Sequence record: LC765218.1
Origin: Pseudomonas phage BRkr
Reading direction: 5' to 3' (one strand)
DNA: 64,000 bases
The notes below the pieces were generated by a model. The model did not search any database. It was not told where the DNA came from and was given only the letters and a program-made list of their open reading frames with translations. Positions 602 through 52,595 of this stretch are shown here, one piece after another (within the stretch, counting starts at the first letter, position 1; each line of letters opens with the position of its first letter). Both the position numbers and the translations under genes were made by a program.

Positions 602-913
602 ATGAATATTCAAACCAATGTACTCCTTGAGTGTGGTTACCGTGATGGTGACAAAAACAAATCGATAGCAATCTATCGCTTCGAGCAGACTCTTCCAGGA
701 CGAGACCTTTCTTATTTTGCAGTAAGTAGTATCGATCCTAAAGAAGACCTCGATAAGTTCTTGGTATATGCCAAGTTCTTTAACACTCGCTCTGTTTCAA
801 CTGCATACTTGCACGCGTTCATGAAATATGATTCTGGTCAGGATCTCACTGAACAAGATTATCATGACATGAATGTAGGTAAGTGCTACGAAGAGCTTCT
901 CGCTGACGTTTAA
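602..913 (+). CDS. hypothetical protein (103 aa)
   Basis: ATG, AAAGGAAA SD. Confidence 0.5.
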   Translation: MNIQTNVLLECGYRDGDKNKSIAIYRFEQTLPGRDLSYFAVSSIDPKEDLDKFLVYAKFFNTRSVSTAYLHAFMKYDSGQDLTEQDYHDMNVGKCYEELLADV

Positions 914-928
914 CGTCAAGGACTAGTC

Positions 929-1285
929 ATGTTTAACGTAGACAGTATCAATCGGTTAGCTAAGCGTATACGCCTTATTAAAGGGTGTCCCGCTCGGATG
1001 TTTGTTACACTGAGATCAGAGCATGGGCATTACTATGATCTTGATATCAGTGGTGACGCTTTCATCTTTGTAATGCGTAATGGCCGACCAGATGCTACTG
1101 TTTACGGTCATTATAAAGAGGATGTTGGTGGGTACATCCAATTGACTCAATGGACATGTACGCTGACTGACGACGAAGTTGGAGACCTTCTCCACACAAT
1201 AGATCGTACTATCGCACTGCATACAGAATGCAATTACATTGTACTTGCTAACAAACATCTTTTTAAGGATACATTTCATGTTTAA
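929..1285 (+). CDS. hypothetical protein (118 aa)
   Basis: ATG; compact spacing. Confidence 0.5.
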   Translation: MFNVDSINRLAKRIRLIKGCPARMFVTLRSEHGHYYDLDISGDAFIFVMRNGRPDATVYGHYKEDVGGYIQLTQWTCTLTDDEVGDLLHTIDRTIALHTECNYIVLANKHLFKDTFHV

Positions 1286-1973
1286 CAAAGATCTCTCGCG
1301 TGACGTAGCAATTGGTGTAACGTACTCCATCGATTTCCTTTGCCAGGTTTATGGCGTCAAGAATTCGCTGGATATGATTTCTTCTGAAGGTTCAAACCAG
1401 TCTCTTATCGATATCGCGCACGTACCTATGTTCCACCGTAGGGTTCCGATGAACCTGGTTCGATCGACTTCCAACTCCACTGGTTGGAAATATCATGAAC
1501 GTGATACCAATGAAGAGACCTGGAAAATGATGGACCTTACGGATGAAAAATTCCGTGAGTTCGTAATTCCTCTGGATGCTTATAATAAGATCCTGAAGTC
1601 CACTCCACCGACTGGCGTATGGGCAGCTGTATCGGGCCTATTCAATTCCATGTCGGCTTCCGAAGCATGCGATATTCTTTTCGGTAAATCTACTTACGGT
1701 GAAGCCTTTGCTGTCTCAGAGGAACGTCGTCGTAAAGAGGCAGAGGAAGCCGCCAAAAAGGCTGTATATCGCACGATAGTGAAAGAGCTGCATCGTCAGG
1801 TCTCTGAGACCCAAAACGTCATAGACGCCATGGGGAGCTCCTCTTTCATTGAACGCTTGCTTCGCACTGGTGAATACGGTGACGTCTACCGTATTGTTTT
1901 CATCGATCTGTACACTCAACACTTCTGTACTCCCCCGCGGGATAACGAGTGGAAAGGTACGGCACTTTTCTAA
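1278..1973 (+). CDS. hypothetical protein (231 aa; internal ATG of table ORF 1239)
   Basis: AGGA SD 9 nt upstream of ATG 1278; 8-nt overlap with the previous gene. Confidence 0.5.
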   Translation: MFNKDLSRDVAIGVTYSIDFLCQVYGVKNSLDMISSEGSNQSLIDIAHVPMFHRRVPMNLVRSTSNSTGWKYHERDTNEETWKMMDLTDEKFREFVIPLDAYNKILKSTPPTGVWAAVSGLFNSMSASEACDILFGKSTYGEAFAVSEERRRKEAEEAAKKAVYRTIVKELHRQVSETQNVIDAMGSSSFIERLLRTGEYGDVYRIVFIDLYTQHFCTPPRDNEWKGTALF

Positions 1974-2009
1974 TCAACATAAATTCAAACCCAACGAAAG
2001 GAATATACA

Positions 2010-2402
2010 ATGACTACTCTTGCTCAGAAATACGCTGGTCACCTCGTTAACCTGACCGCGACGGCTGGTAATCTGGCTACCCTCACTCGCGATATCCTGA
2101 ACAACGCCGACAACCGTTCGTTCATGGATGATGTTCGTGAAGCGTCCGATATGTCTCTGTCTCACCTGCAACAGCTCGTGGAGATGGACATGAAGACGAT
2201 TGAACGTAACATGGCTCTTCTCAAGGCTGCTCTGTACGTCCAAGACGTAGAGCTGGCCAACGGTAAGGGCGACTGGCGTGAGGTTGCCGATACCGATCAC
2301 ACCATCAAAGCGGTGGTGGCGCTTCGTCGCAATATCACCGAACTGTCCGTATCGGAAGCGAAGGCGGTCGTCGAAGGTTACAAAGCTGGTATCTTCAAGT
2401 AA
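2010..2402 (+). CDS. hypothetical protein, 130 aa, strongly codon-optimised (probably highly expressed)
   Basis: AAAGGAATATACAATG start; CTG/CGT/GGT/ACC/AAC codon bias far above neighbours; strong terminator follows. Confidence 0.65.
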   Translation: MTTLAQKYAGHLVNLTATAGNLATLTRDILNNADNRSFMDDVREASDMSLSHLQQLVEMDMKTIERNMALLKAALYVQDVELANGKGDWREVADTDHTIKAVVALRRNITELSVSEAKAVVEGYKAGIFK

Positions 2403-2417
2403 GTTGTAAATAGACAT

Positions 2418-2460
2418 AAAGCCCTCTCCCGAAGGAGAGGGCTTTATGTCAATAAAATTT
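2418..2460 (+). terminator. rho-independent terminator (aaagccctctccc-gaa-ggagagggcttt + ATGTC)
   Basis: Perfect 10-bp GC stem plus T tract. Confidence 0.75.
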
Positions 2461-2466
2461 TTTTCA

Positions 2467-2483
2467 GATCTATATTACCTAAT
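2467..2483 (+). promoter_or_regulatory. promoter motif AGATCTATATTACCTAA (class 2 of the TATATTAC family)
   Basis: Near-identical motif at 44642; upstream of the 2528 ORF. Confidence 0.45.
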
Positions 2484-2527
2484 TGAGCCGTATCTAAGGA
2501 TACCGTTCGTTTAAAGAGGTGACTAAC

Positions 2528-2671
2528 ATGAACTGGAAAACTTTGGCCGCTATTAGCATCGGCGTATTCATTGGTGCTACCATCGTATTCGGAGGAGATC
2601 TATTCGCGACTAATCAGAATGATGAAACTACTGTCGATGAGGCAGATGCAACTCCAATCAACGTAGAATGA
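2528..2671 (+). CDS. small membrane protein (47 aa, one TM helix), not in the ORF table
   Basis: ATG at 2528; hydrophobic LAAISIGVFIGATIVFGG segment; stop overlaps ATG of the next gene (ATGA). Confidence 0.4.
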   Translation: MNWKTLAAISIGVFIGATIVFGGDLFATNQNDETTVDEADATPINVE

Positions 2672-3108
2672 CTTACCGCAGCATAGAGGTCCTTAGGAGC
2701 CACTTTGCTGTCGATCATTTAACGGATCTGTTGTACATAGATTCGGTAAGAGAACAGATTGAACATTTCCGTTTCTATTACCGTGGTACTGAAAGACATA
2801 TCTGTAAAGAGAAAGGCGAGTATTGGTGTCTTCATAGAGGACGTAATGGGGAGTGGGTTAAAGAGCAACTCACTGAAACAATCCTTTCTGAATTTAAGGT
2901 ACTCGATCACGAATGGCGTATACTTGCTGGCATTGAGTTAGATGATACTACTGAAGTAAAAGAAGAACAAAAGGAGTATTATGATTACTTGAAACAAAAT
3001 GAAAAGAAAGTAAAAGAGGAGAGTGCTAGTGAATTGATGGCAGCATTGTTCATGGGAACAATGTTTACTGTAACAAGTTGCCACATCTATCGGATGTGGA
3101 ACAAGTAG
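2668..3108 (+). CDS. hypothetical protein (146 aa)
   Basis: ATGA overlap coupling with the upstream small ORF. Confidence 0.5.
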   Translation: MTYRSIEVLRSHFAVDHLTDLLYIDSVREQIEHFRFYYRGTERHICKEKGEYWCLHRGRNGEWVKEQLTETILSEFKVLDHEWRILAGIELDDTTEVKEEQKEYYDYLKQNEKKVKEESASELMAALFMGTMFTVTSCHIYRMWNK

Positions 3109-3235
3109 TTTGAGTGATGTTTGTTCATGGGAATATTTACCTGATAGGTAAGGATATGTAGGACTAAGAATAAGGAGGGGACTCTTTATATTCTTTTATC
3201 CTACAGTTCTTTTAAATAGACCTAGGTAAATACTC

Positions 3236-3871
3236 ATGAGCAACATCCCTTTCTACTGGACTGTAAAAACAACCGGTTTAACCGAATCCGAATTAATCAA
3301 CACCGTACTTCGTCTTCATGAAGAAGTTGACAGTGTAAACGATACTATCATCGATGGTACTCTAGTAGACCTCGATGTATTGTTAGAAGTTAAAGGACAA
3401 GATGATCTAGTTGATGATGCTATCATTGATTGGATCCGTGATAACTATAAAGCAGGCGATAACATCGTTCTGAAAGTAAAAACTAATCGATTTGTATTTG
3501 GTTGGTTTGCACAAGGTATTGTTGATATTGGAGCAATTCTCCAGAAATATGAACAAGTCCCTGACATGCCAATGGTATTCGATACCTTTAAGCTGAAAGA
3601 TTACAATAAAGAGAAACCCCGTAAGAAAGGTTTCTTTGAACAGTTTAAAGAAAGTATAAATCCGTTGGTTGAATTAGCATATCAGAATAAAGGCTCTATT
3701 GCTGGAATTGCACTCGTTGCAGGTAGTGTACTCTTTGCAAAAAAGTTACAAGACGATCTGGTCAAAACCACAGAAGAAACCGTCCGTAAGACAATGCAAG
3801 AATTTGAACCACCAATCGTCGAAATCCATATCGATGAGTATGGTACATTTGAAGACGTTATTGTTGATTAA
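3236..3871 (+). CDS. hypothetical protein (211 aa)
   Basis: ATG; ends at the bidirectional terminator. Confidence 0.55.
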   Translation: MSNIPFYWTVKTTGLTESELINTVLRLHEEVDSVNDTIIDGTLVDLDVLLEVKGQDDLVDDAIIDWIRDNYKAGDNIVLKVKTNRFVFGWFAQGIVDIGAILQKYEQVPDMPMVFDTFKLKDYNKEKPRKKGFFEQFKESINPLVELAYQNKGSIAGIALVAGSVLFAKKLQDDLVKTTEETVRKTMQEFEPPIVEIHIDEYGTFEDVIVD

Positions 3872-4502: not shown

Positions 4503-5045
4503 ATGATTAATACGCTACGCCGCTGGTTACGGGTGTTCCAGCCAGTATCCAAAAAACAACTGTATTCAGCACTGCTTGATCAGTTTGAAGACGAGGGCGT
4601 GCGTCGTGATAATTATCCCATCATGCTTGCAGAATTATGGAATAGAATCGATGTCAAAGACTTCGGTGAAATTTCACCTAGAGACATGATGGCAGTAAAC
4701 ATGGAGCTGCGACATACTAACGTAACTTATCTGATTGAACAGATGAATGTCATTAACACAATGGTATCCACCGGCGATCAAGCAGCTTTAGAACAAATTA
4801 GTAAGAATGAATTCACCCAATTCAGTAGAGTTAACTTAGATGAATACTTTGCTGATGCAAGAGGTTATTCTGTAGATATAGTCGACTCTTTAGAAAAGCT
4901 TAAGACGTATCTTGATAAGCATGCAATGATTCTTGAAACACAAACCGCGAGCTTCTATAGAAGAGTTTTAGGAAGAGTGTATCATGATATCCTTGTACTT
5001 ACCCAAACGCTTGTTGATACCATGAAGGAAGAAACTATGAAATAA
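4503..5045 (+). CDS. hypothetical protein (180 aa)
   Basis: GGGAG SD, ATG. Confidence 0.5.
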   Translation: MINTLRRWLRVFQPVSKKQLYSALLDQFEDEGVRRDNYPIMLAELWNRIDVKDFGEISPRDMMAVNMELRHTNVTYLIEQMNVINTMVSTGDQAALEQISKNEFTQFSRVNLDEYFADARGYSVDIVDSLEKLKTYLDKHAMILETQTASFYRRVLGRVYHDILVLTQTLVDTMKEETMK

Positions 5046-5098
5046 ATAGAGTTGCGAAACGAAACCTTCTCTTTAATCACCGTAGGTGTAAATGAAAA

Positions 5099-5854
5099 AT
5101 GGATTCTGTACAAGACCTTCTTTCCGATCCCCTTAAGGGAACGTTGCGAGCATCCGATATCCCGTGTTATCTGTTTCGTGAAGTTCTATTGTGGCGTAAG
5201 ATTAACCAACGTACATGGAACCGGCGGCAAGAAGCTTTCTTTGAGAAACCTTGGAATAAAAATAATCAAGACAAGGGTAACCTGAATAAAGCTCTTAAGT
5301 CAGACACGATGCAGTGGTCCGCTTTCAGAAAAGCAATTGACTTCCTGAACCCAGTCCACGCAACACTGGAGATTAAACTGACATGGCGTGACGATCGTGT
5401 TAGTTCGTATGTCATCACGATGGATCCCGAAGAACGGGAAGATGTTCTGACGACCAACAGTTTCCCTTGGCAGGATTGTAAGATATTCGAGAATGCTAAA
5501 CCCGCAGGTACATTGATGGCGCATCTTTTCAGGCACGTTGTTGCAATGGAAGGGAAAGATAAACCAGATATTAAACTCTGGTGGGAGAAGCTTTTTGATG
5601 ATTACACGAAGAATCCCGTTAATGTAGTTGGATTGACTCAGAAAGAAGTGAACCAAAATGTAAACACGTTACGACGTGCTCTGCTTGATCCGAGGGTATC
5701 TTTGAATAACTTCCGTCGTGGTATCCATTTGCTACGCGCAGTTAAGGAAGAATATATTCTGACCCTCCGTTGGTCCGATGATCCAGTTGTCCGTGAATCA
5801 CTTCCGGACTCTGTTCACAAGATCACTATAACTGACCCTGTAGTTGTGGAGTAA
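5099..5854 (+). CDS. hypothetical protein (251 aa)
   Basis: ATG; long ORF. Confidence 0.5.
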   Translation: MDSVQDLLSDPLKGTLRASDIPCYLFREVLLWRKINQRTWNRRQEAFFEKPWNKNNQDKGNLNKALKSDTMQWSAFRKAIDFLNPVHATLEIKLTWRDDRVSSYVITMDPEEREDVLTTNSFPWQDCKIFENAKPAGTLMAHLFRHVVAMEGKDKPDIKLWWEKLFDDYTKNPVNVVGLTQKEVNQNVNTLRRALLDPRVSLNNFRRGIHLLRAVKEEYILTLRWSDDPVVRESLPDSVHKITITDPVVVE

Positions 5855-6317: not shown

Positions 6318-7442
6318 ATGGTACAATTAGCGATCCCTTCATTTACTGGTTTACCAGATGCGGCTGTCAAAGAGGTTGATGCCTATACAGAACAAAGCGC
6401 TGAATTAAAAAATCAGCTAGCCTCTAAGGTAACAGCATTTGGTGTAGGTGCAGACGAACTCATTCAAAAATCACTTGGTGTTGTTAAAGGTATCGGTAAC
6501 AAGATCCTTAACAACGGTATTGATCTCAACATGGCTAGAACACGAATTGCGGATGCCCTAAAAGGGTCACGTAGTTCCATTGTAAGTCTAGCTACGGACG
6601 TTGAACGATCGATTATGGAAGAGTTAACCGGAGAAGATACCGGTACAGGTTATGTTCGTAAAGCAACGGATATGATCGATGGCGTTAAAATGGTTCTCAA
6701 CCAAAAGGATTATTATTTTAAAGATGGGAACTTTAGCGGAGTTAATAGTATTATTGGGTTCATGGGTGACCTGACTAATAACTCATTGCTCCGTGTATTC
6801 GATCTTGGTGCTGAAGCAGCACTGATGAAAGGGATTATCGAAGAGGTTACAGCTTGGGGTATACCCGATCTAGTTGATGAAACCTTTGGAGCCAAGTGGA
6901 CGGATAACAAGTATGAATACGACTATGATGATGATTTCAGATTCTCTGTTGTTAAGCGAGCTTCTGCTAGTATTAGCCCTAGTACTGATCTTGCCACAAT
7001 CGAAAGGTTAATGCTGCATGGCGGTGTTTCAGCACTGATCGCTGAGAACCCAAATTTTCCTGCGCAGTTACTACAGAATTACGTGTTCCCTGAAGAATGT
7101 GTACCTGGTGGTCCTTTCCCTAAAATGATTCCTGACCCGAATAATCCAACTGGACCTGAGATCCCAGATCCAACTGATGCACAGGAACGTCCTAACTACG
7201 CCGACCAAATGGCTACTTTAGTACGCATCCTTAATCAACTCAAACCAGACTGGTTCACTACTCGGCGCCAGGGTCAACCCGTGTGGAATCTTTACTTCCT
7301 AAGTCACGCTTCTGAAGATGCGACCACATTGATTCTTAGTAGTGAAACTCATCGTGAAGCAATGTTGACAGCTCCGTTCTACAAGATGGAAAACCCAATA
7401 GAGCTGATCAAGTCGTTCTATCCTGATGCTGCTATTCAATAG
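6318..7442 (+). CDS. hypothetical protein (374 aa)
   Basis: ATG; long ORF; terminator follows. Confidence 0.55.
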   Translation: MVQLAIPSFTGLPDAAVKEVDAYTEQSAELKNQLASKVTAFGVGADELIQKSLGVVKGIGNKILNNGIDLNMARTRIADALKGSRSSIVSLATDVERSIMEELTGEDTGTGYVRKATDMIDGVKMVLNQKDYYFKDGNFSGVNSIIGFMGDLTNNSLLRVFDLGAEAALMKGIIEEVTAWGIPDLVDETFGAKWTDNKYEYDYDDDFRFSVVKRASASISPSTDLATIERLMLHGGVSALIAENPNFPAQLLQNYVFPEECVPGGPFPKMIPDPNNPTGPEIPDPTDAQERPNYADQMATLVRILNQLKPDWFTTRRQGQPVWNLYFLSHASEDATTLILSSETHREAMLTAPFYKMENPIELIKSFYPDAAIQ

Positions 7443-7451
7443 CGACATAAA

Positions 7452-7480
7452 GCCCTCCCCAAAAGGGAGGGCAATATGCC
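7452..7480 (+). terminator. hairpin gccctccc-caaaa-gggagggc
   Basis: 8-bp GC stem after the stop of 6318..7442; weak U tract. Confidence 0.5.
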
Positions 7481-7503
7481 GTCTTAATCTAACTTAATTG
7501 AGA

Positions 7504-7520
7504 ACTATATTACAAACGTG
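7504..7520 (+). promoter_or_regulatory. promoter motif CTATATTACAAACGTGA; followed by a 5' hairpin gagatg-ttcgag-catctc
   Basis: Second copy of the 17-mer class; upstream of 7610. Confidence 0.45.
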
Positions 7521-7609
7521 AATTGGGTGAGATGTTCGAGCATCTCCCCCAGTTTGCGATACGTCTGATTCGGTTAAACTCAGACTTTCTTCACATGGGA
7601 TAGAAACCT

Positions 7610-7921
7610 ATGAAAAAATGGCCTTTCATTAACGAGAACTTCCGAAGACTAGTAAGAATCTTCTCGATAGATGAAGGGCGGGAATATTACCTTACACCTG
7701 AAGGTTTGACACTGGATGATGTGAGTAATACTCTCGCATATAATTCGGTAGATAAGTATAAACTTGCTTTGAACAAAGCTCGTGAACTTATAGCCCAAGG
7801 TGTGTTCGGGAGATCGGTCTACCTGGACGGTCAAGATGTAACTGAAGAACAGATCAATGGTAAACCACAGTTAGTCCGTTGGCCACCTGTTAATGAAGAA
7901 GCTTATGGCTTCGTAGCATAA
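7610..7921 (+). CDS. hypothetical protein (103 aa)
   Basis: ATG; terminator follows. Confidence 0.5.
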   Translation: MKKWPFINENFRRLVRIFSIDEGREYYLTPEGLTLDDVSNTLAYNSVDKYKLALNKARELIAQGVFGRSVYLDGQDVTEEQINGKPQLVRWPPVNEEAYGFVA

Positions 7922-7927
7922 AGGCAT

Positions 7928-7970
7928 ATCGCCCTCTCCCGAAGGAGAGGGCTTTATGTTCCATTTTTTT
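7928..7970. terminator. terminator gccctctccc-gaa-ggagagggc + CTTTATGTTCCATTTTTTTTT at the convergent junction
   Basis: Same stem as the 2418 terminator; lies between plus gene 7610 and minus gene 7970..8803. Confidence 0.7.
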
Positions 7971-8803
7971 TATCGCATGTAAGCAGGTACACGAATCGGC
8001 TTCTTACGCGACCAACCTAGTTGTTGAATTAGATCAGTAACGTCTAGATTAGGATCAGATTCCATACCGATATTAGCACGCTTCTGTGCTTCATCCTGCA
8101 TCTTCCAAAGGGTAGCAGGTGTGATGATAACTTCGGTATCGGAGAAACTTTCCAAAGCAGGGGAGGTATATTTGTTAGCAATATAGATACCGCCCTCACC
8201 GACGAAGTCCCAGGTGGAAATTTCCCGTGTATACTTAATACCACGCATTACGTCGTCCTGTGTGATAGAACGAACGGAACAATAGGTATTGATACTTGGG
8301 TTATCCAAAGACTCTTTAAAAATGTGACCAAACGGACCGTAAGGTTTAACCTCACCGACGACCATTTTAACAGTCTTACCATTTTCATTCTTACCGGGAA
8401 CAATAGTCAATGCACGGATATGTGCACAAACCCGGTTATCGTCGATCATACGAATACGTTGCAGGTATTGACGATCATCCATCGGTTGACGAACAACACG
8501 ACCATCGATCATCAGGTCTGTAAACGGTTCAGGGTGTTTGAACTCCATGAAGAGAACACCTTTCTTAAGGCGACGCATCAGGGAAGAGTTCGGATCAAAC
8601 ATCGCAACGCCACTGGCTTCGTCATAGAACATACCAGCAGAGTTATGTGTACCATAGGCACCCAGAACTACAGTGTAATAACCGTCCGCATTCGGCGCAA
8701 GAATTCCTTTTTTGTCCGTACCCGCTAACATAGTGCAGCCGATACGTACTTGATTCTGCGGAGAATTTTGGACACCAAAAGAAGATTGTGCCAAAGGATG
8801 CAT
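7970..8803 (-). CDS. hypothetical protein (277 aa), distal gene of the RNAP-containing minus-strand operon; by position could correspond to the phiKZ gp175-177 region (unverified)
   Basis: ATG with ACGGAG SD; no motif recognised. Confidence 0.5.
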   Translation of the reverse strand: MHPLAQSSFGVQNSPQNQVRIGCTMLAGTDKKGILAPNADGYYTVVLGAYGTHNSAGMFYDEASGVAMFDPNSSLMRRLKKGVLFMEFKHPEPFTDLMIDGRVVRQPMDDRQYLQRIRMIDDNRVCAHIRALTIVPGKNENGKTVKMVVGEVKPYGPFGHIFKESLDNPSINTYCSVRSITQDDVMRGIKYTREISTWDFVGEGGIYIANKYTSPALESFSDTEVIITPATLWKMQDEAQKRANIGMESDPNLDVTDLIQQLGWSRKKPIRVPAYMR

Positions 8804-46327: not shown

Positions 46328-47428
46328 ATGTCTTATCGTGGCCCTAAACTTAATCCTAACCAGCAATATTGGATTGAGCGTTATGTTGAACTAGCTCTGC
46401 GAGCTGGTCAAGCCGGTTCCCCTTGGAAAGTACACCACTATATTCTCAATGAAAAGGGTCTCAATACAGATAGCGAGAAGCTCCGCATCTATTATCCTTT
46501 TGGCGTTGATCGTGAAGAGTATATTAAAGAACGGATTGTCGAGATTAAGAAGAATGTCATTGAGACATTTAACCTTACTGCTTTTTCTATTAGTGGTGGT
46601 TGGGCGCTGCTTGATGCAGAAGGTATCCTCGGTTTCCTTATTGAGGGAATGGAAGGTTCAACTAGCCATGGCTTCACCATTTACTCCACTGAAGAATTTG
46701 CTCAGAAGTTCAAGGAACGTTTTGAGTCTGTATTCGATCAGACCAGACCTCCGAGCATCAAGCGCATTCGATTGAATCGTCAGAAGGATGAACTCTATGC
46801 ATGGAGTGAGGTAATTGCTACGCGTGAATACAATGATAAGCTGATGGCAATGTATCCGTTCCTGACTCGTTCCCCAGCTGAAACTTGGGAGGCATTCGCA
46901 GCATCCGATTCTAATATCCTCCTGTTGATTGGGCCGCCTGGCACGGGTAAGTCTACGTTCATTAACGAAATGGTTCGTGCACGTGGTTATGACGACCGTA
47001 ACGTATACTTGGCAGACCAAGACTCCGTACTGAGTCATGGTGATCTCACCAGCTTTATTCGTGGTGTCGAGGATAACTCGCTGATCATTACTGAAGACTC
47101 TGATAAGATGGTTGCCAAACGCGAGGATGGTAACAGTAATATGGCAGGGCTGTTGAATGCGACTGCTGGACTTGTGTCTACCAAAACCAAGATCATCATC
47201 TCTACTAATCTCCCAACTCTTCGTGATGTTGACGAGGCTCTAGTTCGTCCTGGACGTGCTTTCGATATCCTCACCTTTAAGACCCTTACGGCTGAACAAG
47301 CAAACGATGCTCGTATTGCTAACGGTCTTGAGCCTGTGGATTTCGTTGGTAATAACTTCACTCTGGCTGAAGCATTGAACACTGATGCAGCTAGTTCTCC
47401 CCGTAAAGCAAACCGTATTGGTTTCTAA
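46328..47428 (+). CDS. classical AAA ATPase (366 aa) with a ~190-aa N-terminal domain
   Basis: Walker A IGPPGTGKST; second region of homology ALVRPGRAFD (AAA RPGRFD). Confidence 0.65.
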   Translation: MSYRGPKLNPNQQYWIERYVELALRAGQAGSPWKVHHYILNEKGLNTDSEKLRIYYPFGVDREEYIKERIVEIKKNVIETFNLTAFSISGGWALLDAEGILGFLIEGMEGSTSHGFTIYSTEEFAQKFKERFESVFDQTRPPSIKRIRLNRQKDELYAWSEVIATREYNDKLMAMYPFLTRSPAETWEAFAASDSNILLLIGPPGTGKSTFINEMVRARGYDDRNVYLADQDSVLSHGDLTSFIRGVEDNSLIITEDSDKMVAKREDGNSNMAGLLNATAGLVSTKTKIIISTNLPTLRDVDEALVRPGRAFDILTFKTLTAEQANDARIANGLEPVDFVGNNFTLAEALNTDAASSPRKANRIGF

Positions 47429-47437
47429 GGAAAAAGA

Positions 47438-47902
47438 ATGGCACATTCAGAAGCGTTTGAAGACGCTTGGGATCAAGTGAAAGCAGCGGTAGGTGCTGTC
47501 CCTATCGAACATCGAATAAAGATCATTGAAGCAGCTGTACGCAAGCATAAAGAAACTCTCCGTGAGCGCTGCTGGATCGAAGATGATGAAGATGGTTTCA
47601 CTGGATGGCGTTGGGATAAATATAATAAGACCCGCTACATTGTCTGTGCAGCTAACCGTTACAAAGACTACATTGTAACGGGTTCTCGCCATTACTGTGT
47701 ATCCATGAATGCGCAGATCGATCTTATCGGTATGGACGCACTCAGAGCTTATGCAGCCGATGACTATGAGCAAGGCTTCATTGATCAATACGGTGTATTC
47801 TGGTCTCGGAGTGATGCCCTGGAACACGTGAAGAAAACTGGCCAATTGCGTTACCCTGAACATTGCACACGAGATGAGCTTTTCTCGGAAGGTTTGTACT
47901 AA
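47438..47902 (+). CDS. hypothetical protein (154 aa)
   Basis: GGAAAAAGAATG. Confidence 0.5.
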   Translation: MAHSEAFEDAWDQVKAAVGAVPIEHRIKIIEAAVRKHKETLRERCWIEDDEDGFTGWRWDKYNKTRYIVCAANRYKDYIVTGSRHYCVSMNAQIDLIGMDALRAYAADDYEQGFIDQYGVFWSRSDALEHVKKTGQLRYPEHCTRDELFSEGLY

Positions 47903-48216
47903 TGCTCGTTGAAACTATCGACCTTATAGAAATCGTAAAGTCTTCTAATAAGAAAACCGTTGAATTGCGTGATGCAATCGTAGGAGTACTGCGTGATCTA
48001 CTCTATGAAACCTCTAGCCTTAGAACTCGACTTAGATGTCAGTCAAAGAGAGAGGCTCCTTGGGTTCGTAAATACATTGCTAAGCGTACTGCATACAGAC
48101 ATCGACCTTTCCATTTGTCTGTACAGAGGGAAAACGGAATTACAGTTAGAGGCAGTTCATACAAACGTCGCTATATTGAAGGAACACTTCCGTTCCGCAC
48201 TAGAAGGGGCTACTAA
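47902..48216 (+). CDS. hypothetical Arg-rich basic protein (104 aa)
   Basis: ATG overlapping the upstream stop. Confidence 0.4.
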   Translation: MLVETIDLIEIVKSSNKKTVELRDAIVGVLRDLLYETSSLRTRLRCQSKREAPWVRKYIAKRTAYRHRPFHLSVQRENGITVRGSSYKRRYIEGTLPFRTRRGY

Positions 48217-48638
48217 TGTCGAAAAAGAAACAACGTCAACTCGTTACTGTCACCCTCAATGGCTTGGATATTGAGCTTAAAGATGTAGAGATCAAAAACA
48301 TTGGTCGTGGTAAAGGTGACATGTTTGTTCATCTGGAAGAACGTAATGAACGTTGGACGATCATTCACACAGATAGTCCGGTACAGAATGAAATGGGTGA
48401 TGAGCTAACCATTGAATTCAAACGTGGCGGGGATTTCCTTTTCCTGGAAGCTATTAATCCATCTGGACAGGGCTATGGTTTCGCTATTTCAAAAGCAGCT
48501 AAAATCGTTTCTGCTGGAGCGCCTAAGTTCTTGCATATTGATCAGCTGCCAGACGGATTCGAATACCGTATGAACTGGAGTGGGAATTTCTTTGATGAAT
48601 CTCGCTGCATTCAATCGATCGTAATTAAAAAGCAATGA
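48216..48638 (+). CDS. hypothetical protein (140 aa)
   Basis: ATG overlapping the upstream stop. Confidence 0.5.
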   Translation: MSKKKQRQLVTVTLNGLDIELKDVEIKNIGRGKGDMFVHLEERNERWTIIHTDSPVQNEMGDELTIEFKRGGDFLFLEAINPSGQGYGFAISKAAKIVSAGAPKFLHIDQLPDGFEYRMNWSGNFFDESRCIQSIVIKKQ

Positions 48639-48879: not shown

Positions 48880-48910
48880 GGGAGCTTCGGCTCCCCTTTT
48901 TATTTCTTTT
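48880..48910 (+). terminator. terminator gggagc-ttcg-gctccc + T-rich run
   Basis: Canonical. Confidence 0.65.
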
Positions 48911-49659
48911 TGGAAATAGCGATGAACCCATTGATCTTATTCTCGGGTGGATTAGATTCCACTTACATGCTTCAGCAGTATCTTCAAAAAGGTTCGGTGG
49001 ATGTCATGTACATCAATGCTGGTCAAGACGAAGAAAAGATGAAGTTAGAACTCAGGCAACGACAAGTAATCCTTGAAAAGTTTTCTGAGTTCTACCCTTA
49101 CAAAGTACAAGCGCAATATGAACGTCTGAAAAGTACCCAGTTACAAGGTGATAATACCAAATGGTCACAAGTTGCACCGTGGTTATTTGGGGCGCTAGCT
49201 ATAGCTGATTCGGCTCGACATAGCAAGTTGATGATAGGGTATGTCAGTGATGATGGTGCCTACTTCGGATCACATCTACGGTACATCGAAGACGCTTGGT
49301 ATAATCTACAAAAGGTATCTTGCGTTAATGATCCTATTCCAATTGAGTTCCCTTTACTCGGCATGACGAAGGTCGATATTCTTCGTGATCTAGATAAGAG
49401 AGTACTGAACGACATTTGGATATGTGAGACACCTACTAATGAAAAACATTGTGGCAAATGTAAGCCGTGTGTAACCATGACTCGTGTTCTTAGCGATTAC
49501 AAAATTCGACATAAGGAAACTGTATTTGCTACAGCTCGCAGAGCACTGATTCCACATAAGTTTCCAGTGGATAGATACCCAGGTCCGATGGATAAAGATC
49601 ACAACCATTATGTCTTTAACATGGCTGGTCCAGATTACTACAAAATCCCGAGGCACTGA
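48910..49659 (+). CDS. queC: QueC-like PP-loop ATPase (7-cyano-7-deazaguanine synthase family)
   Basis: PP-loop LILFSGGLDSTYML near the N-terminus; C-terminal zinc motif ICETPTNEKHCGKCKPC matches the QueC SCY...CGxCxxC pattern; alternative start at ATG 48922. Confidence 0.7.
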   Translation: MEIAMNPLILFSGGLDSTYMLQQYLQKGSVDVMYINAGQDEEKMKLELRQRQVILEKFSEFYPYKVQAQYERLKSTQLQGDNTKWSQVAPWLFGALAIADSARHSKLMIGYVSDDGAYFGSHLRYIEDAWYNLQKVSCVNDPIPIEFPLLGMTKVDILRDLDKRVLNDIWICETPTNEKHCGKCKPCVTMTRVLSDYKIRHKETVFATARRALIPHKFPVDRYPGPMDKDHNHYVFNMAGPDYYKIPRH

Positions 49660-49660
49660 A

Positions 49661-50137
49661 ATGACAGACAAGAACAAAGACGAATCTATTATTGTACTTA
49701 GTGCGAATGCATTCGAAGAACTGATGGCGTATGCGAGGATAGGCTGTGAAGAAGCTGGTTGCCCTGAGAAAGCAAACTCTCTGCACAAGCATGCACGTAA
49801 GCGCAACACTTGGTTGCGTGATAAACACATGCAAGATACTCAAGAGGCTCGTCGTAACTATGCTAACCTGAAACAACAGGTCAAGCAGTTCGTTGGTGCT
49901 CATGGCGGCACTACTGTTTACATGCGTTATGACGAATTCGTCGTTATCCCGGTTAAGGTACTTGCTGTCTATCTTCCCAACCGAGTTAAGATCCGTGTCA
50001 AAGAACATGGTTTCAATGGCGGCGAGAAATTGGTTGATCTGAGCCAATTGACTATCACCAAACCGGCAGGCACATGGACACCGATGGAACTTGCCCAGCT
50101 TCAATGGGATTCATCGAAGAGTCGCTATCGTGGCTAG
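49661..50137 (+). CDS. hypothetical protein (158 aa)
   Basis: GAGG SD; starts 2 nt after the queC-like stop. Confidence 0.5.
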   Translation: MTDKNKDESIIVLSANAFEELMAYARIGCEEAGCPEKANSLHKHARKRNTWLRDKHMQDTQEARRNYANLKQQVKQFVGAHGGTTVYMRYDEFVVIPVKVLAVYLPNRVKIRVKEHGFNGGEKLVDLSQLTITKPAGTWTPMELAQLQWDSSKSRYRG

Positions 50138-50144
50138 GGGATAC

Positions 50145-50783
50145 ATGGCAATCGTAGGTTCTCGTAACGTACCCGAATGGATCCTTGAGGTAATGATCCG
50201 TCTTGGTCGTACACTCACGGACTACGGTTGGGCTATTAGTTCAGGCGACGCCTATGATTCTGATCGGGCTGGTTGGTATGGTGCAAAGCAGTCGCGTAAG
50301 TATGGTGAGGTAGGCGCTAGGATCTATCTCGCTAGTGGTACAGGTAGAAGCTTCTATCGTATTCGTGATAATGCTTTCTTTATGGATGCGTCTCAGTTCA
50401 CTGATACATGGGCTACAGCTGAAAGTATGGCTGCTTGTGCTCGTGGTAGTTTTGGTGGGTTGAACGATTACGGTAAAGCTCTCCATACTCGGAACGTCTT
50501 CCAGATCCATGGTCATACTCTCGATGAGTTGGTCACTGGTATTTTCTATTATGCCGTCCCTAAGGGGAAACGTGAGAATGAAGTGGTGAACGGTGGTACT
50601 AATACAGCAGTTCGCTTAAGTGTTAATGCTGGTGTTCCTATCCGTAAGAACCTGTACTACGATGATGACTTAAAATGGGTCATCAAGTTCCTAGATAAAT
50701 ACGAGCTTGATTATCCATACGAGCCGATTGACTGGACAGCTATCCATCATCCACAAGACCCGAGGATACTTGATTTTGAATAA
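50145..50783 (+). CDS. DprA/Smf-like Rossmann-fold protein (212 aa)
   Basis: AIVGSRNVPEW...GWAISSGDAYDSDRAGWYGA resembles DprA VAIVGSRNAS...VVSGLARGIDAAAHRGA; AGGGGA SD. Confidence 0.5.
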   Translation: MAIVGSRNVPEWILEVMIRLGRTLTDYGWAISSGDAYDSDRAGWYGAKQSRKYGEVGARIYLASGTGRSFYRIRDNAFFMDASQFTDTWATAESMAACARGSFGGLNDYGKALHTRNVFQIHGHTLDELVTGIFYYAVPKGKRENEVVNGGTNTAVRLSVNAGVPIRKNLYYDDDLKWVIKFLDKYELDYPYEPIDWTAIHHPQDPRILDFE

Positions 50784-51168: not shown

Positions 51169-51323
51169 AGCATCTGAGGATTGGGTTCGTCGGAAACTCA
51201 AACTGTCAATGAAAGGAGATGAAAATCCAATCATTGAACTCGCTGAGAAATATGAATTCCGTAAAGCAGAGTTTAATCCGGACCACCTTAAGAAACATTA
51301 CTTTACCACTAACGGAGATTCCC

Positions 51324-51902
51324 ATGCAACGCAATAATGATCCGCAACAAATTATCATGTCCATCGAAGCATACAACAATCTTGTTGCTATGGCCGATAC
51401 CTCGCCGCGTTATAGCACCAAACTGATTCGACGACATGTTCGAAAAATGAATCCTTTCCTGCAACCAGCACATCAGAAAGCGGTTAGAGAAGCAGAGATT
51501 ATTCGCACGAAACGTATTAGGGAAGCACGAGCTTTCTTTGAAGCTAATCATGGTAAACTTCTTTACGCTGAAGTGGACTTGGGTAGTCTTAAGCAAGGTG
51601 ATGATCCCGTTTACTTCCCTTGTGTATCGGAACGGATTGACCGTAACCGTCAATGTATCCGAATTCACCATGTGAATGATACAGGTGAAAATATTCGTAC
51701 ACGAATTGTTACTGCTGATATTTTGACCACTGAGCTCCCGGATGGTTATATCCAAGGTATCTGGCATTTCCGTGACTATCTCGTAAAAGAGAATGGACCT
51801 TATGACCTTCGTGAGCAAGAAAAGCAACGGGAGATTTCACTTAAGAAATATGTAGATTCTCTTCCGGCATACAAAGGCGATGAAATTCTGGTAGAGCGTT
51901 GA
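51324..51902 (+). CDS. hypothetical protein (192 aa)
   Basis: GGAG SD 7 nt upstream of ATG 51324. Confidence 0.45.
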   Translation: MQRNNDPQQIIMSIEAYNNLVAMADTSPRYSTKLIRRHVRKMNPFLQPAHQKAVREAEIIRTKRIREARAFFEANHGKLLYAEVDLGSLKQGDDPVYFPCVSERIDRNRQCIRIHHVNDTGENIRTRIVTADILTTELPDGYIQGIWHFRDYLVKENGPYDLREQEKQREISLKKYVDSLPAYKGDEILVER

Positions 51903-51950: not shown

Positions 51951-52595
51951 ATGACAGTTCTCTCTGATAAAACAATTCGTGAATACTGCGAAGGCACAAT
52001 GGTCGGTGCACATGGTCCAATGATAGAACCATTTCACGGTTCGTCAGTGAAAGAAGATAGTCATGGAAAGCGTATCGCTTCCTATGGTCTGTCCTCTGGG
52101 GGTTATGATCTTCGAGCTGGTACTGAGTTTAAAGTATTCAAGCCTCTACCTAAGTTCACTCTTTGGCAACGTTTCAAAGCCTGGGTAACAGGTAAAGAAC
52201 TTGAACACCCTGTACTGGATTACAAGAACATCAGCGCTGATCTGTTTGATACAGTCTACGGTGATAAAGTTGTAGTTCCCCCAGGTGGTTTCCTTCTGAC
52301 TCATTCGAAAGAGTATGTTCGAATGCCTCGGAATGTAATCGCAATGTGTATTGGTAAATCTACCATCGCGCGAGCTGGTTGGAACTGTCTGTGTACTCCA
52401 ATCGAGCCAGGTTGGGAAGGACATATCACGTTCGAGTTCCAGAACACTACTAATCGCCCTAACGTGTTCTATGCACATGAAGGTGTTTTGCAACTGGTGT
52501 TCCATGATCTCGATCAAGATTGTGAAACTTCCTATGCAGATCGTGGTGGTAAATACATGAAACAGGCAGATAAGGTTATTCTGCCTCGGGTATAA
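51951..52595 (+). CDS. dcd: dCTP deaminase (Dcd / dUTPase superfamily)
   Basis: SYGLSSGGYDLR and IEPGWEGHITFEFQN (E. coli Dcd IDPGWSGCIVLEFYN). Confidence 0.7.
   Translation: MTVLSDKTIREYCEGTMVGAHGPMIEPFHGSSVKEDSHGKRIASYGLSSGGYDLRAGTEFKVFKPLPKFTLWQRFKAWVTGKELEHPVLDYKNISADLFDTVYGDKVVVPPGGFLLTHSKEYVRMPRNVIAMCIGKSTIARAGWNCLCTPIEPGWEGHITFEFQNTTNRPNVFYAHEGVLQLVFHDLDQDCETSYADRGGKYMKQADKVILPRV

Follow-up and report, generated by a model that had tools for sequence, protein, structure and literature searches.

A QueC-like protein of a Pseudomonas jumbo phage belongs to a distinct phage family that probably acts on a substrate other than that of QueC

We examined a 64,000-nucleotide stretch of DNA from Pseudomonas phage BRkr (LC765218.1), referred to below as the window, which encodes a QueC-like protein within a group of three open reading frames (ORFs). 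The three are tightly packed and run in the same direction on the plus strand: the QueC-like ORF (48910–49659), an ORF encoding a 158-amino-acid protein (49661–50137), and a DprA-like ORF with a SLOG/Rossmann domain (50091–50783). The QueC-like ORF opens with a TTG at position 48910, and the ATG used in the GenBank relatives, at 48922, yields a protein of 245 amino acids that starts MNPLILFSGGLDS. Similarly, the annotated ATG of the DprA-like gene at 50145 yields a protein of 212 amino acids. The PP-loop SGGLDS, an ATP pyrophosphate-binding motif, is read directly at residues 8–13 of the QueC-like protein (48943–48960, plus strand), and the family alignment described below places a zinc-ribbon motif, C168-E169-x-P171-x5-C177-xx-C180-xx-C183, at 49423–49470 (plus strand). 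The initial annotation had described the same three genes, and our analysis confirms it: the ORFs, the PP-loop and the zinc site are present, and the domain matches that we obtained are far beyond chance. It had further proposed that the protein belongs to a 7-deazaguanine DNA-modification pathway, with its partner genes located elsewhere in the genome or with the phage scavenging preQ0 or 7-carboxy-7-deazaguanine (CDG), the substrate of QueC, from the host. Action on a different substrate was offered as a fallback.

The region is 97–98% identical to Pseudomonas phages PS119XW, phiLBG22, PA1C and HHBS36_1, all of which have genomes of about 302 kb, in keeping with the earlier suspicion of a jumbo genome; the same region is 78% identical in phage HPP-Temi. 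The annotation of HHBS36_1 includes a nuclear shell protein (chimallin) and the PhuZ tubulin, and the phage is therefore a nucleus-forming chimallivirus. On this basis we assign the window to a Pseudomonas chimallivirus of the PA1C/PS119XW type with a genome of about 302 kb. Directly upstream of the QueC-like start, a GC hairpin followed by a run of T residues (48880–48905, plus strand) resembles a terminator and is the sole such site between positions 47800 and 52000. The QueC-like gene thus appears to open a new transcription unit. A scan for sigma-70 promoters gave fewer sites than shuffled controls, a result that says little here, as the phage has RNA polymerases of its own.

The QueC-like protein is readily recognized by models of the QueC family. 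It matches the Pfam QueC model with E=5.3e-11 and 42.9 bits (gathering score 22) and PHROG 1550, 'QueC-like', with E=3.5e-32, and hhalign aligns it to nine canonical QueC sequences with a probability of 99.2% and E=9e-20. It also carries two features of canonical QueC, the SGGxDS PP-loop and the C(x)8CxxCxxC zinc motif. We nonetheless classify it as a homologue of QueC and not as an orthologue, because its score with the NCBIfam equivalog TIGR00364 (QueC), 32.2 bits, is far under the cut-off of 150.3. PRK11106 gives 14.4 bits against a threshold of 378. The hidden Markov model (HMM) of its own family scores the protein at 317.7 bits, compared to 71 bits with a canonical phage QueC profile. A profile of its relatives matches QueC structures in the PDB with 31.9 and 26.1 bits and Cap9 with 27.5 bits, in each case only over the ends that hold the PP-loop and the zinc ribbon. 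QueC and Cap9 are its first structural neighbours, followed by ThiI, TilS, NcsA and TtuA. The protein consists of a catalytic core of 200 amino acids and a disordered tail, and has no THUMP, PUA or other RNA-binding domain.

A 2026 survey of PF06508 (PMC13329287) gives the canonical QueC signature as SGGxDS, YxQxHxxE, VPxRN, YPDC, K165 and Cx8CxxCxxC, and mutagenesis in the same work found Y35, R99, Y131 and Y189 to be essential in E. coli QueC. According to structural work on Cap9 and QatC, the tyrosine of YPDC stacks on CDG and its aspartate reads the Watson-Crick edge of CDG (PMC13279940). Our alignment of nine canonical sequences, one from E. coli and eight from phages, shows R99, N100, D133, K165 and Y189 to be invariant. 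In place of YxQxHxxE the window protein has YINAGQDEEKMKLE, in which the histidine is absent and just Q and E are retained, and the position of Y35 is occupied by Ala or Gly in this protein and its relatives. The VPxRN motif is likewise missing; at R99 and N100 the family profile shows a gap, and the family has Q83xxxW87 instead. Y131 and D133 of YPDC have no conserved counterpart, and most family members carry a two-residue deletion at this point, in a segment that aligns with low confidence. Tyr189, which follows the first zinc cysteine, is replaced by an invariant Glu169. Since Y35, R99/N100, YPDC and Y189 are all without counterpart, we consider the CDG-binding apparatus to be lost from a protein in which the ATP site and zinc ribbon remain. 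Its own invariant residues are K39, E43, Q83, W87, D111, E169 and P171. Loss of the CDG-binding and essential QueC residues speaks against the use of CDG from the host and, together with the TIGR00364 score and the absence of pathway genes described below, against an orphaned QueC of the 7-deazaguanine pathway. The fallback of a different substrate is supported instead.

The relatives of the window protein are numerous. A word-indexed search gave only 21 clusters, from contigs that reach 306 kb. The exhaustive search with an HMM brought the number, at 50% identity, to 585 with a threshold of E≤1e-30 and to 1953 with one of E≤1e-10. Conservation was computed over 164 representatives that are mutually at most 50% identical. 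E43, Q83, K150, C168, E169, C180 and C183 are conserved in 100% of these, D111 in 99%, K39, W87, P171 and C177 in 98%, and PP-loop residues S8, G9, G10, D12 and S13 in 96–100%. The resulting signature comprises LFSGGxDS[TS]Y, K39, E43, Q83xxxW87, YVxxD111, FP, K150, CExP and CxxCxxC, and the window protein has every residue of it. Family members score 93–318 bits on the family HMM, versus 20–55 bits for canonical QueCs, which reach 70–200 bits on the canonical profile. All 72 family loci that we examined are phage sequences. Species-representative cellular genomes gave at least 39 loci; those among the matches listed are all canonical QueC and fall in the canonical score ranges just given, with no family member from a cellular genome or a defence island among them. 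By these measures the group is a large, sharply defined family distinct from QueC and, in our searches, found only in phages.

Members in GenBank are encoded by jumbo phages of Erwinia, Burkholderia and Ralstonia and share 29–39% identity with the window protein. The Kuttervirus protein annotated 'QueC-like/alpha hydrolase' also belongs here, since the family HMM scores it at 88 bits and the canonical profile at 30. The K, E, Q..W, YVxxD, K and CExP elements are retained in it and, like the window protein, it is encoded by a lone gene amid replication and nucleotide-metabolism genes. It differs in its identity of about 28%, in a zinc motif of the form Cx8CxCxxC, and in its host and virus family. 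Kuttervirus proteins of the ECML-4 type were noted as 'singleton QueC-like' by Hutinet et al. (2019), and Iyer et al. (2021) reported that certain jumbo phages have only some components of the deazaguanine system. The group had thus been noticed already, as an uncharacterised variant of the QueC scaffold. The PF06508 survey (PMC13329287), confined to the ten largest clusters, contains no discussion of it. Our search of the literature on jumbo phages with 'PP-loop' turned up nothing relevant, and the one PA1C-group paper that we checked, on HPP-Temi, contains no restriction or DNA-modification data. In Erwinia phage pEa_SNUABM_54 the homologous gene (4986–5810 of locus L003) has an in-frame stop just past the PP-loop (GGLDSTVML*KYLQ), and the deposited coding sequence begins downstream of it. 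This could reflect a pseudogene, a sequencing error or read-through.

Canonical QueC genes are linked to queD, queE and folE, and in phages to dpdA. As sources for QueD, FolE, QueE and DpdA profiles we used canonical deazaguanine clusters of phages, recovered as weak hits in the same scan of IMG/VR that yielded the family loci; the Pfam models PTPS, GTP_cyclohydroI and Radical_SAM confirmed QueD, FolE and QueE. The profiles regain their own control loci at E values of 1e-33 to 1e-218. With default HMMER filters they find nothing at E≤1 in the window, which bears out the earlier statement that FolE, QueD, QueE and DpdA are absent there, nor in the six-frame translation of the complete 302-kb genome of phiLBG22. 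With the filters off, only noise was obtained (best E=0.04), and E. coli Tgt used as a query found nothing either. Moreover, the PHROG-style annotation of HHBS36_1, which we consulted for coding sequences 1–418 of 420, includes no GTP cyclohydrolase, QueD, QueE or queuine/DpdA transglycosylase. The suggestion that partner genes lie elsewhere in the genome is therefore rejected by the phiLBG22 search and the HHBS36_1 annotation. The single match among the 71 other family loci is a marginal one to QueE (E=0.009, 14.7 bits), whereas the canonical phage QueC loci from the same scan do carry pathway genes.

To characterise the genes that accompany the family, we carried out a neighbourhood census that drew on 74 loci from IMG/VR together with GenBank and metagenome sequences. 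It comprised 72 family loci in 52 groups (70% identity), with 12 canonical QueC loci as controls. The largest subclade is AT-rich, with many contigs of 150–365 kb, and its QueC-like gene lies in a tight operon. An SNF2 helicase gene is found upstream in 30 groups, an ORF of about 120 amino acids runs into the start of the QueC-like gene in 24 (with a gap of -3 nucleotides as the median), and a gene for a 1224-amino-acid family-B DNA polymerase comes next in 29 groups with a median gap of 6 nucleotides. In all 41 of 41 cases the DNA polymerase B gene is on the same strand as the QueC-like gene. NUDIX and CCA-adding enzyme genes are located a few kilobases downstream, the latter about 8 kb away in 17 groups. 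Locus L041, one of the loci L028–L069, is an example of this operon, with the short ORF at 7434–7796, the QueC-like gene at 7789–8637 and the DNA polymerase B gene thereafter. The protein of about 120 amino acids has no Pfam or PHROG match, but 29 of its 32 members share an N-terminus of the form M-[G/A]-x-x-Y-x-W-x-x-N-P-F-x-D-F-L.

In the chimallivirus-like subclade a gene for an HD phosphohydrolase is close to the QueC-like gene in five groups and directly adjacent in some, and genes for DHFR and a metallophosphatase also recur. The HD-domain protein (loci L019, L024, L025, L027, L076, L003 and L013–L015) matches the Pfam models HD-CE and HD and has a faint match to cyclic-nucleotide phosphodiesterases. 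A dCTP deaminase gene is found 0.7–6.8 kb from the QueC-like gene in 8 of the 52 groups, including the window, where this gene (DCD) occupies 51951–52595 on the plus strand. An AAA+ ATPase resembling phiKZ gp208 is present in six jumbo-phage groups, at about 1–3 kb from the QueC-like gene in five of them and at 9 kb in the sixth. Genes for topoisomerase II, an exonuclease, a phosphatase, a phosphoesterase and dCMP deaminase surround the Kuttervirus gene. The theme common to these neighbourhoods is a module of replication and deoxynucleotide metabolism.

Cap9 and QatC, two further proteins built on the QueC scaffold, modify protein N-termini in anti-phage defence. Cap9, from type IV cyclic oligonucleotide-based antiphage signalling systems (PDB 9NTO), shares with the window protein a minimal QueC fold and the CE...CxxCxxC motif. 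It keeps the RN and H(x)4YxDC motifs for CDG binding (PMC13329287), however, both of which are missing from the alignment of our family. Cap9 genes sit in defence islands with genes for a CD-NTase and the TGT-like Cap10, whereas the window gene is phage-encoded and its neighbours are annotated as hypothetical, DprA-like and dCTP deaminase proteins. No CD-NTase or Cap10 is seen near it in the annotation, which was read for CD-NTases without a dedicated profile search, and the genome gives no TGT/DpdA match. QatC of the QatABCD system (PDB 9VLK, 9ZEE) resembles the window family in that the PP-loop and a cysteine-rich motif are kept and the CDG site is remodelled. In contrast to the 245 amino acids of the window protein, QatC has about 400–465, with N- and C-terminal extensions and a motif of the form C(x)19CGxC. 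The window protein scores 23.9 bits on the NCBIfam QatC model NF041925, whose cut-off is 280, the PADLOC QatC model gives a partial match with E=1.4e-4, and no qatA, qatB or qatD is seen beside the window gene.

In the PP-loop enzymes QueC, GMP synthase, NAD synthetase and Cap9, the substrate is adenylated with ATP and pyrophosphate is released. We think it reasonably probable that the window protein is an active ATP pyrophosphatase with the QueC/Cap9 fold, acting on a substrate other than CDG and outside deazaguanine DNA modification. Its family retains the PP-loop for ATP, a catalytic-site lysine and the zinc ribbon, with the residues for CDG recognition swapped for an invariant set of its own. 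By analogy with PP-loop chemistry, the enzyme would adenylate a carboxyl or carbonyl oxygen of its substrate with release of pyrophosphate, after which an amine or ammonia would receive the activated group. The most likely substrate seems to be either a nucleotide or nucleobase or a replication-associated protein, handled during early or replicative gene expression, because the recurring neighbours are DNA polymerase B, SNF2 helicase, dCTP/dCMP deaminase, HD, NUDIX and metallophosphatase proteins. Finding it could bring to light a new modification, of nucleotides or of proteins, in jumbo phages. In many large phages the family is linked in operon fashion to DNA polymerase B. Labels such as 'QueC-like queuosine biosynthesis' or '7-cyano-7-deazaguanine synthase', attached to these proteins by annotation pipelines, invite wrong predictions of deazaguanine in phage DNA.

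Several observations weigh against this proposal of an enzyme with a non-CDG substrate. The central part of the alignment with QueC is of low confidence, and QatC likewise lacks the canonical CDG motifs, yet one paper has proposed a deazaguanine substrate for it; loss of the motifs alone therefore does not strictly exclude a deazapurine. Our DpdA search used the profile of one subfamily, and E. coli Tgt failed to find the control DpdA itself, which means that a transglycosylase of very divergent sequence might have been overlooked. The neighbourhoods in large phages partly reflect the conserved synteny of early-gene blocks. Past the terminator-like site, moreover, the 158-amino-acid and DprA-like genes are tightly packed with the QueC-like gene, and the three are likely to be co-transcribed in the PA1C lineage.

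A genuine QueC, supplying preQ0 from host CDG to an unrecognised or host transglycosylase for insertion into the DNA or RNA of the phage, would be in keeping with the Pfam and PHROG matches and the intact PP-loop and zinc site. Iyer et al. (2021) suggest that jumbo phages whose deazaguanine gene set is partial may rely on enzymes of the host, and the halovirus HVTV-1 modifies its DNA without a DpdA of its own. We regard this as very improbable, since the protein lacks all four residues that E. coli QueC needs as well as the aspartate that reads CDG, the score is far under the equivalog cut-off, the pathway genes that mark the control loci are lacking, apart from the marginal QueE match, at the 71 loci outside the window, and no DpdA was found across the genome. 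In addition, chimallivirus DNA is shielded within a protein nucleus. If P. aeruginosa has a QueC of its own, as we assume, duplicating the host enzyme would also add little. Equally hard to credit is a protein without catalytic activity, persisting as a remnant or as a decoy that might tie up a component of defence, and encoded by a dispensable accessory gene. The gene is indeed lost in phage phiHQ, as described below, and interrupted in pEa_SNUABM_54. However, conservation over the 164 clusters is 96–100% at the PP-loop and at some 15 further positions, a pattern expected of active enzymes, and a Kuttervirus homologue has been detected by proteomics (one peptide).

An RNA-modifying PP-loop enzyme, catalysing for example thiolation or a lysidine-type modification of phage or host tRNA, has somewhat better prospects but is still improbable. 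It is suggested by the rank of ThiI, TilS, NcsA and TtuA among the structural neighbours, by the CCA-adding enzyme gene of 17 groups, and by RtcB and an RNA ligase encoded in the PA1C-type genome. A bare core of 200 amino acids with a disordered tail offers no RNA-binding domain, however, and its four cysteines form a zinc ribbon of the QueC type rather than the Fe-S site of a thiolase. Moreover, we found no tRNA genes in the window and no sulfur-carrier gene nearby. The alternative that deserves most attention, although we still judge it unlikely, is a protein-modifying ligase in the manner of Cap9 and QatC, which would adenylate an acid, be it a nucleobase carboxylate or some other, and attach it to the amine at the N-terminus of a phage or host partner protein, possibly in the regulation of replication or in counter-defence. 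The family might then be a further branch of the QueC scaffold whose members act on the N-terminus of an upstream-encoded partner and so control replication or blunt deazaguanylation-based immunity. The structural match is best with Cap9, the window family has the CE motif in common with it, and the conserved N-terminus of the roughly 120-amino-acid protein of the largest subclade recalls the N-terminal glycine substrates CdnD and QatB. Many members of this small protein have Ala in place of Gly, however, and it has no detectable homologue in the window or the PA1C-type genome. Its N-terminus is thus a lead for the family and not evidence on the window, and in the PA1C lineage such a ligase would need some other protein as its partner. 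The RN and YxDC motifs of Cap9 are also absent, and no CD-NTase, Cap10/TGT-like or QatABD proteins were seen. We retain an ATP pyrophosphatase with a non-CDG substrate as the preferred reading.

The initial annotation had taken the adjacent DprA/Smf-like gene as a hint of a DNA-directed function. The protein it encodes matches PHROG 768, 'DprA-like', with E=8.6e-43, but remains under the curated cut-offs of other models (Pfam DNA_processg_A, 20.7 bits versus 29.6; TIGR00732, 13.1 versus 191), and a profile of its family matches DprA (18.6 bits) and LOG (17.7 bits) about equally. Its AlphaFold2 model is a single domain of 212 amino acids with a predicted local distance difference test score of 92.7. 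Foldseek places DprA Rossmann domains at the top, followed by a Moco carrier protein, ShosA, LOG and ThsA-SLOG, with weak matches throughout (E=8e-3 or worse). The protein shares with DprA/Smf (PF02481) a Rossmann domain of the SLOG type with the motifs SGxAxGxD and GGTxxTA, and is without the N-terminal SAM and C-terminal winged-helix domains of DprA/Smf. The model and profiles describe it as a single-domain SLOG protein closest to DprA, so that the DprA assignment stands at the level of the superfamily and no further. Two PADLOC models for DprA-like antitoxins of defence systems match it weakly, PsyrA of PsyrTA (E=0.0025) and ShosA of Shosta (E=0.033), and a role as an antitoxin mimic in counter-defence is conceivable.

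DprA-like genes are present in 629 phage records, nearly all without a QueC-like gene. They are carried by phiKZ-like phages such as 201phi2-1, by Pseudomonas myoviruses of about 90 kb such as CHA_P1, and by large Aeromonas and Escherichia phages, and close homologues occur in PhiPA3 and Phabio. Conservation of a DprA/Smf copy in phiKZ-like jumbo phages was reported by Iyer et al. (2021). Only 3 of the 52 QueC-like groups have a DprA-like gene within 10 kb, and it is adjacent in the PA1C group alone. Furthermore, the viable Phikzvirus isolate phiHQ (PV029745.1; 780–960 of locus L103) carries a clean 704-bp deletion that corresponds to window positions 48940–49643. This removes the QueC-like ORF alone, leaving a remnant of 10 codons (MNPSILIPRH*), and retains the 158-amino-acid and DprA-like genes as well as the terminator-like hairpin. 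From this deletion and the stop in pEa_SNUABM_54 we conclude that the QueC-like gene is accessory and that its two neighbours are independent of it. A conserved QueC-DprA module is rejected by the census of 72 loci, by the distribution over 629 records and by phiHQ, which offers a ready natural knockout of the QueC-like gene for comparison. The adjacency is specific to one lineage and probably stems from placement in a variable island, not from functional partnership. The window gene is not in itself a sign of modified DNA, and it has no functional tie to the DprA-like gene.

The record of PA1C labels the DprA-like protein as similar to phiKZ gp207. It also labels an AAA+ ATPase encoded 1.5 kb upstream of the QueC-like gene (46328–47428, plus strand) as similar to phiKZ gp208. 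Going by their numbering, gp207 and gp208 are presumably neighbours in phiKZ, and if so, the QueC-like gene and five small ORFs form a variable island between conserved genes. The 158-amino-acid ORF was likewise considered as a conserved linker and rejected, because it has no homologue near the QueC-like genes of other lineages. It matches phrog_18482 weakly (E=4e-9), and the same model matches a 227-amino-acid ORF at 51219–51902 with E=6e-72. The two proteins have a BLASTP E of 0.15 with each other and may be distant local paralogues that flank the DprA-like gene.

Upstream of the QueC-like gene lies an ORF of 140 amino acids (48216–48638, plus strand), for which a jackhmmer search found nothing outside the PA1C group. 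A homologue of the same length was seen on an unrelated 310-kb viral contig (9570–9992 of locus L016), where it abuts the QueC-like gene with a gap of 0. The pair shares 26% identity over 128 amino acids (pairwise BLASTP E=2e-6), both proteins start M[S/A]KKKQ, and the association is seen in these two lineages only. Outside the window, HHBS36_1 (PQ287642.1, 60411–67975) encodes in a row a nicotinamide phosphoribosyltransferase, a ribose-phosphate pyrophosphokinase and a nucleotidyltransferase, next to a tRNA splicing ligase of the RtcB type and to an RNA ligase, a block that looks like NAD+ salvage and RNA repair. In the same phage a 1049-amino-acid 'DarB-like antirestriction protein' (702–3851 of locus L001) is annotated amid genes for virion proteins, on the strand opposite to the QueC-like gene and some 8.5 kb upstream of it.

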